From contig JBEWZL010000102.1 in NCBI GenBank assembly GCA_045837725.1, positions 1 to 64,000 of the forward strand: a stretch of DNA of 64,000 nt, written 5' to 3'. The notes below the pieces were generated by a model. It was not told the DNA's origin. It saw only the letters and a program-made list of their open reading frames with translations, and made no database searches. The DNA comes from Vermamoeba vermiformis. Taxonomy: Eukaryota. The position numbers and the translations under genes are program-made. Below, one piece after another: positions 20,784-59,321 of this stretch (positions are counted from its first letter, which is position 1; each line of letters opens with the position of its first letter).

Positions 20784-23700
20784 ATGGCTGATCTTTCTTA
20801 CTACCCAATTTTGCTAAATTTCTATCCTTCATATTTTACCAATCCCAATCAGATTGCAAAAATACTACAGTAATATCGTACAATTAATAATATAATTAAT
20901 TACTCACATCATGTAGGACTCGCTTTGGATAAATGGAACTTTGGCAACTTCAGTAATCGACTTGTATCCTTATTATTTGGTTGAATAGTGCCGTCATAAG
21001 GGCATAATATTTATTATAATCGTAATCATAATCTTATTTTTACTATTAGAAAAGTTTCGACAATTTGCGAAACGCACTCTGACACGTGTCAATTGCACTA
21101 CGTTTCCTTAACTTTTATTCGATAGGTATTTATTCCCAGTCGTATTCTTAGTGGCCTTAATATTATTCACACTGCGATTAATCCAACTTAATCGACGAGC
21201 AACCACGAAAAATTTAATCGGCTATTATTGGTTCAATCGGGCAAACGCGGATCTGCCCTTTTCAGAGAGAATATCAAAAGAATGGCATTTTTGGGACGCC
21301 GTTCATCGAATAGAAGTCATTTGCTCATTTTTGATCATTTTCGTGGCGCTGGCTGGCATAGCAGGTGACATCTTGTTAGCGTCAGAACAGTACGATATTT
21401 CCGCATTAATTCCGCACTCCAGCCTTCTGCTAACCTGGGTACGTTCTATATATCCATATTAGGCAATACACTAACCTCATATTTAAGATTGGAAGCTTAT
21501 TCGTGATTCGTAAAGAATACACGCTCGCAGCGAAGCACAACTGGTGCATTGTTGTCACGTGGAATTTTTGCTTCGTTGTGCAGTGCATTAGAATTTCGTC
21601 GTTGCACGCTTTGGATAGTCTCGTACGTAGCCAGATCTGGATCTCATGATGGTGTGTTTCTTTGTCTTTGTCTTACTAATATTCTATTGTAGTGGACGTT
21701 CCAAGCTATTATCTCCATGATCGGATTGGCTCTCGTGACTATAATCGCCGCCACAACGCTTGTTGCGAACAGAAAACCGAAGATCCAAAACAACGATTAT
21801 TCCACGATCAATTTTAAGGCAAGAAGTACCGGCCTGTTCGATGAAGACGAAGAATTTGAAGAAAATGAGGAAGACGACTTGCTCATAGAGAAGGAAAAAG
21901 GCGAGGCGGATCTGGTAAACGGATCGAACTCTCAAAAGAAGAAAAAGGTGGAGTTCAAGCGCGAGGATGAAAATCCACAAGACCGCATAGGCTTCTTCAG
22001 CACCATTACGTATTCGTGGATGACTAATTTCATGAAATACGGAACGAAAATGACTTACACAATTGACGATGTTTATCCACCGAGAAAAGGTAGGAAAATT
22101 GCTAAAATTTGTTAAATATAGTACTAACATTGATATCAAAGCCCATTACAGCGAGATTCATTACAACAAATTGACGGCCATTTGGCAAGAAGAAATGAAG
22201 CGCGCAAAGCCTTCATTAGCCAAGGCAGTTTTCCTCGGATATTGGAGGCCTCTCATTTTACCGTTAGTTTTCCGTTTTTCGGTCGATGCGCTGACTTTGC
22301 TAGGTCCAATCTTGTTGAAAAAGTGCATTGAATTTGCCGGAAATGCAGATCAGCCGCTGTACATCGGATTTTCATATGCATTGGCGTTATTTGCAAGCGC
22401 AGCACTGCAATCGATATTCAATCATTCCTACTTCATGACATTACTTGCAGTTGGATCGAACGTGAGTAGTAGAATTTTCCTAAAAAGGAAATTTACGAAT
22501 TATTATTAATAATTTTATTATCCAGATTAAATCGGCTCTAATTGGCATGATTTATGCGAAAGCATTTCACCTATCTTCGAAAGAACGATCGAAAAGAACT
22601 ATAGGCGAGCTCGTCAATCACATGGCAATCGACGCGAATATATTCAACGACATGACGTTCTATTTTTATCCTATATTTACACCAATAGTTGTCATAATGT
22701 GCATCGTACTCTTATGGCAAGAAATTGGTGTATCGAATCTAGCGGTAAGCTATATATTCCTTTCTAGAAAACTTTTGCTGACTATTTGTTAGGGCATTGG
22801 AGTTATCATCTTGTTTTTCCCGCTCAATTTCTTCCTCGGTCGCCGGATGATGAGATTACAACGAGAATTGATGGAAATTAGAGGTTCGTATATATTACTA
22901 TCTGCTATCATATCTATTATGGTGTCGTAGATACTCGGAGCAAGTTGACGAATGAAGTACTGCAAGGCATTCGTGTGATCAAGTTCTTTGTCTGGGAAAG
23001 CAAGTTTTTGAAGCAAATCTCCGACGTGCGCAAGAATGAATTGGCCAAGTTGAAAAAACTGTCGTTCATTCGTGCCACTAACATGCTCATATGGGTGATG
23101 ATGCCTCTTTTGGTAAGCTTACTTTCCTTTTTTAGTAATTCTCGTGCTTATTGTGCCTCAGATCTCCGTGGCCAGTTTTGCGTTGTACACCTTTTTAGGA
23201 AATGAATTGACGCCCGAAAAAGCCTTTACTTCATTGGGTAAGATCGACCTTAGTCGAACAAACACACCTATTAATTACCTAATAGCGATCTACAACATCT
23301 TGCGTCAGCCAGCTAGTTGGATGCCACGTGTCATCGCTCAAATTGTTGAAAGTCGTGTTTCACTGAAGCGAATGCAGGATTATTTGCAAGCCGAAGAAAT
23401 GAATGACAACTCGATCACACGCATTAAATCTCACGATAACTTTGCAGCTGAGAACGTCATTGAAGTGCACAGTAAGTTATTGCATAATTTCAATGGTTCT
23501 TACCGACTAATCCGTATTTTAGATGCCTCCTTTGACTGGAATGAAAGTGAAGTGATTATTCCAAATTTGAAGCTTCAGCGTCAAGAGACAAGAGCTCGTT
23601 GGTATTGTTGGCCCTGTCGGCGCTGGCAAAAGTTCGTTGCTGCAAGCATTGTTGGGTGAAATGCCAAAGGTTCGTAACCAAGCCGTTGTTGTAGTACACT

Positions 23701-57116: not shown

Positions 57117-59321
57117 TTAAAAACCAATGGAAGCTATAACAATAAATAATCCGACGCTAATGCTAACCAAGCGGATCGAGCCATCACCCGTCACTTGAGT
57201 TGAAGAGGGTGAGGCGCTAGGACTCGAGCTAGGACTCGTAGGTGTTGGGGATTCGGGAGTTGACACTGCAAAGTGAATAACAGCCACTGTGTCACTCACT
57301 TCGAATGAGAGTTCATCATTGGACGCAGTCAACTTTTGACTGGTGAATGTCCATTGATCGTTGTACTTCAGTAATTCAATCGATGCGAATGACGAGAGCT
57401 GACTGGACTGAAGCGTTGCAGGGAGGTTAGGAGCTTGAACTTGAAGAGAGGGTGTCACGGAGGTGTCTGAAACTGGCCGTTAATCGAGGACAAGTTCAAA
57501 GACAAACGACTCACCTTCGCAAGTAATCTCGTGCCAAAACACCAAGTAGAAGTCACCACTGCTCTTTTGGAACAACAAGTGATGCACCATGTGCATTTGA
57601 GTGATGTTGCCGACTGGTTGCGCCGTCAGGTTGAAGTTGAGTTCGCCAGGAGTGAACGAAGGAGCGTCTAATAGGGTAGTCAATAAATGAACCCTCAGTA
57701 ATATATGATGAACAAATCAGCAAATAAAACTTTCGCTACCAGACTGACACGAAAGACAATTGACAGGTGTCATAATCAACCTACTTTTCTCTTGCAACAA
57801 GTGAATCAAGCTCTTCACTGCAAAGAATGCTGGCTTCTCGGTGACGTTGCGATAAAGAAGACCAAAGTTTGCTTCTCTGTTCGTGCGATCAGGGTCAACA
57901 AACTCGTCGATGAACTCGTAGGTGAACGTTCGAAATACACCCAGTCTGAAGAACTCTAAGTAAAGCCTAATAATACGAATCTTATAAGAATGAACAAGAT
58001 TTGCGAGTAGCTTGCCTTGGCATGTATTTAGCGTGAGCCAAGTTCGAAGAGCCGTTGACCCAAGTCGAGTAACCGGTCTCGGTAGCGACCATGTACTTCG
58101 GATAATAGGGGGGTCTGTAAACATTGAATTGCCACGGATATACGTCCAGCGCAACTGCGAAAAAGGTGTAAGCAGAAAGTTCGTACTTACAGAGCCTGTC
58201 GTTGTGAACTTGAACGAGACTTACCCGATGGAAAGTTCGAGTCCCAGTATTGCTTTGCCAACACCCAGTAGGGCCTAGGATAGTTGAAGGGATTGCCTCC
58301 TCTACAAATCAAAGTTACTTCAAGTTCGGAATTACGTGGATCCGTAAGACTGGAACTTACATGTAAGGATGGAAATTGCCGTAATCAACAGTGTCATTCA
58401 ATAAACCAGCAGCGAATGGGTTCGGAGTATCTGTTGATCGAATTAGACATGCTCTATAAGGTAGTTAGTTCCTTAACCAGAGACGTACCGCCATAAGTCT
58501 TGCCGAGGGCAATGCCGTAGACCAACAGGTTTTTGGTCGTGTCATTGGACTTGAATGCGGTGTAAATGTCACGCATAAAGTCAATCGCTCCTTGCGGGAA
58601 TCCCTGTAATATGTTTGGTTATTACGGGTGAGTAGTGAAAAAATACGGTGACACGTGTCACCAAGTGTCAAAATGTGTTCCAGAAAAGATTCTTACATTC
58701 CCGTTGTATTTTTTATTCAGATTCACCCAAAAATAATCTGGCTCATTGGGACCTACAATTTCGTTAATACGAGGTCCATAATCATGATATTTAGGCTTAC
58801 CTTCGATCGCATCTATTGTCGGGAATGATTCGTTAAAGTAACTGGCCACGCGTTGTTGCAACTGCGTTGGATTTCCCTTCAAAGAGGTCAAAATTATGTC
58901 ACTTAATATATTAATAGTACATACGAGGTCAGGTTCCATTACAACTGTTGTTTTAATTCCAACTGCGCCGAGTTCCCGAATCCGATTGCTGAAACCATCA
59001 CGAATGTGACGAATACCAATATCAATTAATTTTTCTTTAACTTGGGCGTACGCAAAGCCGTATGGAGTGTCGGTATATGTCCAATGAGTGCATACACCGA
59101 TGCTGAAATGACAAAGGATCAGAAAAAAACGCAATCAGCAAAATAGGATACCAAATAACTTTAAACAAACGTCAAAATTATTAAGAATATGCCCATACTA
59201 AAACAAATTAATCCACTTACCTCTCGACGAATTCTTCGCTTCGGATCGCGACTTCAGCGTTGGTTCCGAATTTGTCCGCAACAGCCAACAATAAGACAAA
59301 GAGAAATAAAGAAGCTCTCAT
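57117..59321 (-). CDS. Secreted, GPI/TM-anchored clan GH-A glycoside hydrolase-like protein of bacterial type
   Basis: Signal MRASLFLFVLLLAVA, EEFVE|SIGVCTHWTYTDTPY, GIRHIRDG, AIE|GPNEPD, VATETGY, TFTYEFIDE, EANFGLL, KPAFFAVKSLI, S/P/T linker and hydrophobic tail. Confidence 0.85.

Follow-up and report, generated by a model that had tools for sequence, protein, structure and literature searches.

The first 64,000 positions of contig JBEWZL010000102.1 of Vermamoeba vermiformis (positions 1-64,000, the window, to which all counts below refer) hold tightly packed, intron-rich eukaryotic genes at a G+C content of 38-47%. The subject of this work is the perfect 12-bp palindrome TGACACGTGTCA, the half-site TGACAC joined to its reverse complement, which occurs in six exact copies, all of them within predicted spliceosomal introns. 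The genes and motif sites that matter here are collected in Table 1. Further products encoded in the window are an AAA ATPase, a mitochondrial carrier, a NAP protein, a Cdc14-SIN protein and a TALE homeobox gene. A prediction made earlier on this DNA (the original prediction) had labelled the genes that carry the palindrome. Its ABCC and GH5 labels are supported, and its label OTU for the gene of the copy at 43803 could not be confirmed, Pfam being blank on three exon stretches and one large open reading frame (ORF) of that gene. In the extract of the Vermamoeba genome report covered here, a G+C content of 41.7% is given for the genome and the word 'motif' does not occur (PMC7125106).

Table 1. 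Genes, palindrome copies and half-site introns in the window (a slash within a sequence marks a splice junction)
Feature	Position	Strand	Remarks
ABCC transporter 1	1389-7010	-	domain search and own gene models
ABCC transporter 2	20853-26816	+	domain search and own gene models
GH5 copy 1	17944-20353	+	C-terminal extension
GH5 copy 2	37834-40635	+	C-terminal extension
Membrane-protein tandem pair	33478-35553 / 35828-37726	- / -	
Exact palindrome, copy 1	21080-21091		34 nt upstream of acceptor; ~173-nt intron 20953-21125 (+), near 5' end of ABCC gene 2
Exact palindrome, copy 2	25788-25799		55-nt intron 25775-25829 (+), ABCC gene 2; 13 nt past 5' splice site; TTAAC closer to 3' end
Exact palindrome, copy 3	39282-39293		49-nt intron 39251-39299 (+), GH5 copy 2; also holds palindrome ATCAGATCTGAT
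Exact palindrome, copy 4	39474-39485		88-nt intron 39448-39535 (+), GH5 copy 2; lone TTTTGACAC before, TCTAAT nearer 3' end
Exact palindrome, copy 5	43803-43814		73-nt intron 43770-43842 (-): CAG/GTACGT ... GCTAAC ... CTGCAG/
Exact palindrome, copy 6	58649-58660		93-nt intron 58604-58696 (-), glycoside-hydrolase-like gene; lone TTTTGACAC precedes
One-mismatch copy TGACAGGTGTCA	32412-32423		exonic; exon 32364-32482 defined by X8 joints on either side
One-mismatch copy TGACACTTGTCA	59750-59761		~430 bp upstream of predicted start of glycoside-hydrolase-like gene
Tandem half-site intron	24240-24293	+	54 nt; TGACAC x4, GGACAC, TGACAT; no CTAAY; X8 joint 24238 to 24293
Intron with three sense half-sites TTGACAG, TTTTTGACACG, AATGACAC	43456-43519	-	predicted; last A 16 nt from 3' splice site
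Intron with one-mismatch palindrome TGACACCTGTCA (sense), 12 nt past 5' splice site, and lone GTGTCA	57668-57784	-	predicted
Intron with TTTGACACGTGCAA, half-palindrome with CACGTG core	48636-48753	-	predicted; models of the two strands conflict
Intron with GGTGTCACGTGACC, a different CACGTG palindrome fused to antisense half-site	39148-39202	+	directly before the intron of copy 3
Three ABCC introns, TGAC directly followed by GT	24429-25095	+	own models; TGACGTCA 11 nt, CTGACGTGTCC 15 nt, TTTTGACGTGTAT 15 nt (A to 3' splice site)
ABCC gene 1 intron with TACTGACAC	1653-1704	-	14 nt from 3' splice site; U2 pairing score 19/19

Water metagenomes contain DNA near-identical to the window, as do sequencing runs that carry various other organism labels. 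The only useful transcript source were the contigs of run X8, which is filed under another organism; they are spliced and ~97% identical to the window; among the matches listed, their GT..AG joints span 48-63 nt, plus 96 and 236 nt. The raw RNA runs X19-X21, which carry the same species label, gave 52, 43 and 19 reads at the locus, nearly all partial or poly-A. Gene models were built with our own self-training spliced gene finder, for which local splice signals were taken from the X8-supported introns (GTAAGT or GTACGT, then CTAAY or TTAAC, then YAG); branch-point information was not used, and the lower length limit for introns was 40 nt. The final models are crude, with some genes merged and some overlaps on opposite strands. 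The motif intron 43770-43842 was set by hand, and intron 20953-21125 was added from X8 evidence. Around one CACGTG site the predicted introns 52531-52573 (+) and 52534-52590 (-) overlap on opposite strands, so that at least one of them must be wrong, which shows the limit of the gene finder. The resulting compartments comprise 31,673 nt of exons, 9,084 nt of short introns and 23,243 nt of other non-coding DNA.

The original prediction had located the six exact copies correctly; their density is about one per 10 kb. In 100 dinucleotide-preserving shuffles the mean number of copies is 0.01, and none of the shuffles reaches six. If up to two mismatches are allowed, 19 matches are found against 2.29 expected (largest shuffle 6), which divide into exact, one-mismatch and two-mismatch sites as 6 : 5 : 8. 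Over all k-mers under an order-3 Markov model, TGACACGTGTCA is the most over-represented 12-mer in the window, the G/C homopolymer run aside; the poly-C/G entries stem from a G17 run at 52692-52708 and a G9 run at 60576-60584, both non-coding. Among 6-mers, the same model ranks GTAAGT and GTACGT, both 5' splice-site words, first and CACGTG next (33 sites, ~14 expected). As had been claimed, the symmetry of the copy at 58649 continues to 16 bp (GGTGACACGTGTCACC), and the listed intronic variants are present as well: the tandem array in 24240-24293, CTGACGTGTCC at 24665, GTGTCACGTGAC at ~39153, the three half-sites in 43456-43519, TGACACGTGCAA on the minus strand at 48669 and, within 57668-57784, the one-mismatch palindrome TGACACCTGTCA at 57761, in the same gene as the copy at 58649. 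Near-copies are not limited to introns: of the five with one mismatch, three fall in exons, and TGACACTTGTCA at 59750 is the sole near-copy in putative promoter DNA.

The surroundings of the copies are unrelated. Between copies the 40-nt flanks agree at 2-18 of 40 positions, with 10.6 expected (ungapped, either relative orientation), and the exact match continues past the 12-mer for 0-3 nt. A repeat search of the window returned only short matches driven by the motif itself, and neither duplicated target bases beside the copies nor terminal repeats were found. With such flanks the copies do not form a repeat family, which bears out the earlier statement that they are not a transposon. We also considered and rejected a family of introners or of the miniature inverted-repeat transposable element (MITE) type: there is no flank similarity, terminal repeat or target-site duplication, and the GH5 introns stand at positions shared between paralogs and are not newly gained. 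The copies at 39474 and 58649 share the longer stretch ATTTTGACACTT(T/GG)TGACACGTGTCAC, that is, an extra half-site adjoining the palindrome.

The claim that the palindrome is always inside introns holds for six of six exact copies, on evidence of unequal strength: a spliced contig for one, an acceptor for one, paralog comparison for two, and splice signals with reading frame for two. The spliced one is the intron of the copy at 25788, where an X8 joint leads from 25771 to 25828 and skips 25772-25827; its donor and acceptor score 7.8 and 5.2, and it holds two in-frame stops. For the copy at 21080, an X8 contig piece has an exon that begins at 21126 (record position 69), which supports the acceptor downstream of the copy; the donor TCA/GTAATC at 20953 is, judging by its sequence, the best candidate for the other end. 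The GH5 paralogs, ~47-77% identical in protein over the aligned exons, are interrupted at identical protein positions, each by its own unrelated GT..AG sequence. This covers both 39251-39299 and 39448-39535; at the latter, which would give three in-frame stops on read-through, the paralog reads EANSDVW/MGWTYW with its own 60-nt intron at that point. Because the positions are shared, we conclude that these two introns are real and old. The motif is absent from the equivalent introns of the paralog. The intron of the copy at 43803 has donor and acceptor scores of 7.2 and 4.5 and coding-like exons on either side of a non-coding-like interior, its support coming from signals and frame. For the copy at 58649 the scores are 5.8 and 5.8, there are three in-frame stops, and support consists of signals, frame and coding potential.

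As a group, the five short motif introns have donors of 5.8-7.8 and acceptors of 2.7-5.9, compared with 4.3-8.1 and 2.4-7.1 in the transcript-supported set. Nine of their ten flanking exons are coding-like, the exception being an 18-codon exon upstream of the 58649 intron (-0.042). Read in frame, none of the five introns is coding-like, and most contain in-frame stops. Independently of any gene model, a consensus donor at most 45 nt upstream and a YAG at most 60 nt downstream on one strand are found for five of the six sites and for 16.7% of all window positions (binomial P = 6.7e-4). The motif introns are longer than the others (median 68.5 vs 55.5 nt, P = 0.02), a difference that is partly trivial. 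A Pfam search with the single exons beside motif introns, which are too short for the purpose, returned only Cellulase 218-261 for 39302-39445 at E = 0.003, below the cut-off. Two X8 contigs diverge from the window close to palindrome sites, at 25805, 6 nt past the exact copy at 25788, and at 32428, 5 nt past the one-mismatch copy at 32412; both run on for at least 255 nt as unlike, GC-rich, ORF-like sequence.

The half-site shares the preference for introns. TGACAC/GTGTCA is 7.4-fold enriched in short introns (23 vs 3.1 expected), stands at expectation in exons (18 vs 18.1, 1.0-fold) and comes to 10 vs 7.8 (1.3-fold) in other non-coding DNA, counted by compartment on our own models. Within the window, the earlier claim of a short, exact, intron-embedded cis-motif is borne out. 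The central CACGTG occurs 9 times in short introns against 1.1 expected, 17 times in exons against 7.7 and 7 times in other non-coding DNA against 2.8; it is therefore 2.2-2.5-fold over-represented even outside introns. Among 13 intronic CACGTG cores, six have the full 12-mer and one more has half of it; the exonic cores have assorted flanks. The geometry is strict. Inverted TGACA..TGTCA pairs occur nine times with a 2-bp spacer and not at all with spacers of 0, 1 or 3-6 bp, and no everted pairs exist at spacer 2. At the centre of the nine pairs stand CG (six pairs), GG (two) or CT (one).

Such symmetry can be explained if the 12-mer is the site of a dimeric protein, either a TALE pair of the TGIF/MEIS type or a bHLH/bZIP protein on CACGTG, and serves as an intragenic regulatory element or as a pausing element for RNA polymerase II. 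We consider this explanation possible, although on balance unlikely; on this view the lone sense half-sites would be unconnected with it and would be branch sites. A TALE homeodomain (Homeobox_KN, E = 1e-19) is encoded in the window, by a gene at about 54.5-56.4 kb; its recognition helix reads WFINARRR in our own translation, which we take to mark the TGACA-reading TALE class. The arrangement of palindrome with auxiliary half-site is found both along and against the direction of transcription, and neither strand is preferred in the palindrome flanks. A search in print for the 10-bp core GACACGTGTC gave, by titles, mostly work unrelated to sequence motifs and some from the plant promoter-motif literature. 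The 12-mer is a perfect palindrome, and the exclusive 2-bp spacing matches the canonical TGIF1 DNA ATTGACAGCTGTCAAT, on which one homeodomain sits on each face of the palindrome, as far as the extract of the structural report goes (PMC6158717). To this extent the TALE geometry of the original prediction stands. The centre does not fit, being CG instead of GC; none of the nine inverted pairs has the centre GC of the canonical TALE sequence TGACAG/CTGTCA, and position 6 of the half-site is also unlike the TGIF site.

The distribution of the copies argues further against a transcription-factor site. The other non-coding DNA, 23 kb in which promoters would lie, holds none of the six exact copies, and half-sites are not in excess there; if sites could lie anywhere in non-coding DNA, the chance of finding six of six in introns would be ~0.29^6 = 5e-4. 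This absence is left unexplained by a dimer site. We rejected a promoter or enhancer E-box on the same count, the copy at 59750 being the only near-copy in a putative promoter. Twelve invariant positions in all six copies, together with so few degenerate relatives, are unusual for the site of a transcription factor. The copies sit well inside gene bodies, one of them in about intron 16 of the ABCC gene. No clustering of the motif introns beyond chance was found by gene or by region (P = 0.48 and 0.38), and hence nothing that would suggest a regulon or an enhancer cluster. The original prediction had also pointed to a methylatable CpG at the centre. CpG is not depleted, with observed/expected ratios of 1.12-1.16 in introns, exons and other DNA alike, so nothing suggests CpG methylation, and we do not retain this idea.

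The half-site may in addition have an orientation. In intron interiors TGACAC is the top enriched sense hexamer (15 vs 1.78 expected; its reverse complement occurs 6 times), followed by CACGTG (10 vs 0.87) and the branch word ACTAAC (13 vs 2.74). Once the five of each orientation that belong to palindromes are set aside, lone half-sites there are sense in 10 cases and antisense in one; counted by intron, the ratio is 7 to 2. Their consensus is TTTGACAC, often followed by TT(G). Of 17 sense TGACAC sites, 14 are within the AG-free zone that precedes the 3' splice site, which is weak evidence since random placement in the same introns would give a fraction of 0.68. The canonical branch words CTAAT (25), CTAAC (21), TTAAC (12) and CTGAC (9) are for the most part 10-19 nt away from the 3' splice site. 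Where a well-placed CTAAY or TTAAC is lacking, the A of a TGAC-type word is found 10-16 nt from that site in at least seven introns (1653-1704, 24240-24293, 24429-24477, 24635-24682, 25040-25095, 39251-39299 and 43456-43519); in the tandem intron 24240-24293 the A of the last TTTTGACAC is 10 nt away.

Pairing to U2 small nuclear RNA (snRNA) was scored against the conserved eukaryotic sequence GUGUAGUA. TTTTGACAC scores 16 and TACTGACAC 19, where 19 is ideal; among 2,112 candidate A positions the 99th percentile lies at 16. Given this score and the position in the seven introns, we take TGACAC as a putative branch-site variant here, and the TGAC-type sites of these introns would be their branch points. 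The scoring rule, pairing to U2 GUGUAGUA with the branch base removed, is that of Mercer et al. 2015 (PMC4315302), in whose extract CUGAC is a strong and common human branch motif and the branch-binding sequence of U2 is described as strictly conserved in eukaryotes.

On these grounds we tentatively favour the view that TGACACGTGTCA is a splicing-linked, branch-site-like intron element that acts in the pre-mRNA. The 12-mer would belong to an intron-resident family built on the half-site (T)TTGACAC, which would pair with U2 snRNA. UUGACAC with its A bulged out could pair with GUGUAGUA; the CAC after the bulged A would extend the U2 helix, with two G-U wobbles in place of the usual CUAAC core. 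Copies further upstream, which include five of the six palindromes, would be auxiliary, alternative or decoy docking sites for U2 through which splicing is tuned in very short introns. The palindrome would then be one box joined head-to-head to its own complement, hence its identical reading on either strand, and the complementary half would either mask the box by pairing or play no role. Of the interpretations offered by the original prediction, a splicing element in very short introns fits best, in view of the apparent sense bias, U2 pairing and position; its transcription-factor reading fits poorly, since the half-site is enriched in introns only.

Several observations weigh against a branch-site-like element. 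Only one of the six exact copies, that at 39282, is at branch-point distance (15 nt); for the other five the distance to the 3' splice site is 39-59 nt, and a canonical branch word stands closer to it. The palindrome flanks show no strand preference, with mean U2 scores, taken by hand, of ~14.8 sense and ~14.3 antisense, and the extra half-sites beside palindromes are two sense and two antisense. The strand bias of the lone half-sites comes from few independent introns (7 vs 2), and four of its copies are in tandem in one of them. Among 91 strong U2-pairing sites 40 are distal, and only ~7 of those 40 are TGACAC, so that pairing strength alone does not single out the family. A branch site needs neither a GUGUCA half nor a perfect palindrome; a strictly spaced perfect palindrome is the hallmark of a dimeric binder of double-stranded DNA and not of a single-stranded RNA signal, and symmetry and the fixed 2-bp spacer point to such a protein. 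Finally, the compartment counts all depend on our own crude gene models, and transcript support covers part of one 20-kb stretch. Weighing both sides, we tentatively regard TGACACGTGTCA as an intron-resident, splicing-linked cis-element, with a DNA-binding site as the serious rival.

Some of the same observations could also reflect an origin by mutation. The copies would then have no function of their own and would arise by a mutational or selfish process, such as a tiny mobile or templated insertion or a template-switch 'correction' of TGACAC seeds, and be kept where they are tolerated. Every copy is exact, consistent with a recent origin, the palindrome is a seed plus its reverse complement with zero spacer, and both TGACAC seeds and tandem TTGACAC arrays occur in introns. 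The stretch shared by 39474 and 58649, the greater length of motif introns and the lack of the motif in the paralogous GH5 introns agree with this. So does the abundance of palindromes in introns generally, where 20 palindromic twelve-mers are found against 4.6 in shuffles; five of these are TGACACGTGTCA and five belong to an (AT)n run, leaving 10. We nevertheless judge such an origin improbable. Neutral insertions should be tolerated at least equally in intergenic DNA, yet none is found there, and target-site duplications and common flanks are lacking. Six identical independent events per 64 kb, set against about eleven lone seeds, would demand a very high conversion rate. Intron 39251-39299, moreover, would measure 37 nt of its 49 nt without the motif, which is below every predicted intron (lower limit 40 nt).

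A self-complementary 12-mer may instead work through RNA-RNA pairing, by which copies in introns would loop out exons to give skipping or circular RNA, or would pair with an RNA in trans. Any two copies are complementary over 12 nt in any orientation. Exon 39300-39447 has an exact copy on each side, the two being 192 nt apart; the ABCC gene holds two exact copies, and the copy at 58649 has its one-mismatch partner at 57761 in the same gene. The gene of the copy at 43803, however, has a single exact copy, and the motif introns are not unusually structured (mean folding z -0.66 vs +0.25, no top outlier). Neither skipping nor back-splicing was seen, the X8 contigs being ordinarily spliced where seen, and 12 bp are short for a long-range helix. 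We therefore think this mode of action very unlikely.

An Rfam scan of the window returned two U6 genes only, elsewhere from the motif, and no tRNA genes; no RNA family accounts for the motif. The U6 genes (45700-45803 and 46556-46659, minus strand, 114.6 bits each) are contained in a 179-nt direct repeat (45690-45868 / 46546-46724, 90% identical), and as a consequence part of our gene model for 45.7-46.3 kb is spurious. Within U6 stands GGAUGACACGC, the half-site of the motif, and the conserved U6 segment UGACACG, complementary to CGUGUCA, occurs in both genes. It is conceivable, with a probability that we put very low, that the 12-mer is an intron tag that docks spliceosomal RNAs, the UUGACAC half to U2 and the CGUGUCA half to UGACACG of U6, and so gathers or holds back both. 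If this were true and the density of the window held, thousands of short introns genome-wide would be concerned. Pairing of copies with each other across exons would be a cousin of this reading. The chance of a 7-mer match among ~700 nt of snRNA is about 1 in 4, which makes the U6 match a lead only.

Three paralogous gene pairs, ABCC, GH5 and the membrane proteins, lie inside the 64 kb, and in both the ABCC and the GH5 pair the exact 12-mer is in introns of one member only. A second family of intronic palindromes is built around AGATCT (GCCAGATCTGGC, CCAGATCTGG, ATCAGATCTGAT; at 11772-11783, 21631-21640, 39260-39271 and in other introns). In intron interiors GATCTG is counted 8 times on the sense strand (1.27 expected), and some copies stand at branch-point distance as ATCTGAT. 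These sites resemble the plant intron-mediated-enhancement word TTNGATYTG. The word CGGATCTG/CAGATCCG occurs 12 times against 1.8 expected across exons, introns and other DNA, and so is not intron-specific (for example at 8292, 8719, 14436, 21248, 21907, 30138, 39765, 44544, 44819, 61631 and 62337). Among intron-rich neighbours, an intronless 879-codon gene at 8707-11343 (+) combines Kelch repeats, a transmembrane stretch and a TKL-type kinase; in a protein search the relatives found for its Kelch part were mostly bacterial. A metagenome scan returned two contigs, 6.0 and 5.2 kb long, of a relative whose kinase is 69% identical; they hold no copy of the palindrome, which is uninformative, since ~0.5 would be expected at the density of the window. 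In another relative the kinase is 77% identical.

If the window is typical, the genome would hold thousands of exact copies of a 12-bp palindrome, all in introns of ~50-90 nt, of which the element would take up a quarter. The statistics are strong and the restriction to introns is striking; the palindromic form is unexplained by a branch site. A branch-site-like word that exceeds the canonical branch motif in enrichment, in combination with a palindrome that no splicing model predicts, would bear on how very short introns are recognised, and also on tuning of the splicing machinery by extra snRNA-docking sites. Read as DNA, the motif would belong to the rare protein-binding sites that are found in introns only. 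As an intron signal it could also be of practical use in gene finders for this lineage.

We found no published description of TGACACGTGTCA as an intronic element, supplementary motif tables being outside the search. The exact 12-mer in print turned up, by listing, in the virology literature. A search for ACACGTGT with 'intron' returned nothing relevant among the matches listed, and the literature on introners, palindromic elements and short introns held no matching element. The yeast Mer1 enhancer is a gene-specific intronic splicing enhancer. With enhancers of this type the motif shares a short specific word in a subset of introns, which possibly marks regulated splicing; they are, however, one-stranded and non-palindromic, and the motif here shows no gene-wise clustering. 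The E-box/G-box of bHLH and bZIP proteins has the same palindromic CACGTG core, which is 8-fold enriched in the short introns. In contrast to the variable flanks typical of these boxes, the same full 12-mer surrounds 6 of 13 intronic cores here, in introns instead of promoters. ACGTGTC is the reading of the abscisic acid response element.

With introners, introner-like elements and symmetrical stwintrons, as described in the extracts covered here (PMC7789003, PMC8469720), the motif has in common a sequence shared by unrelated introns and a palindromic character. It differs from them in its unrelated flanks, in having no terminal repeats or target duplications, and in the old, paralog-shared positions of the GH5 motif introns. 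The TALE dimer site, as far as the extract of PMC6158717 describes it, likewise consists of two inverted TGACA words at a spacing of 2 bp, frequently flanked by T/A (TTGACA..TGTCAA). Here C takes the place of G at position 6 of the half, the centre deviates as stated above, and all copies are intronic with none on the promoter side. With the B-box branch motifs (CUAAC, CUGAC, UUNAN; PMC4315302, in extract) the half-site yUGACAC shares the U-n-A core, the pairing to U2 (score 16-19 of 19) and the location in introns; it also has an apparent sense bias and, in several introns, the usual distance of 10-16 nt to the 3' splice site. B-box motifs are short, degenerate and non-palindromic and peak near the 3' splice site, whereas the element described here is an exact 12-bp palindrome with five of six copies distal. 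The motif misses a defining feature of each system, the position at the 3' splice site for the B-box and the location and exact sequence for the dimer site. Its half-site behaves most like a B-box, and its symmetry most like a TALE or bHLH/bZIP dimer site.

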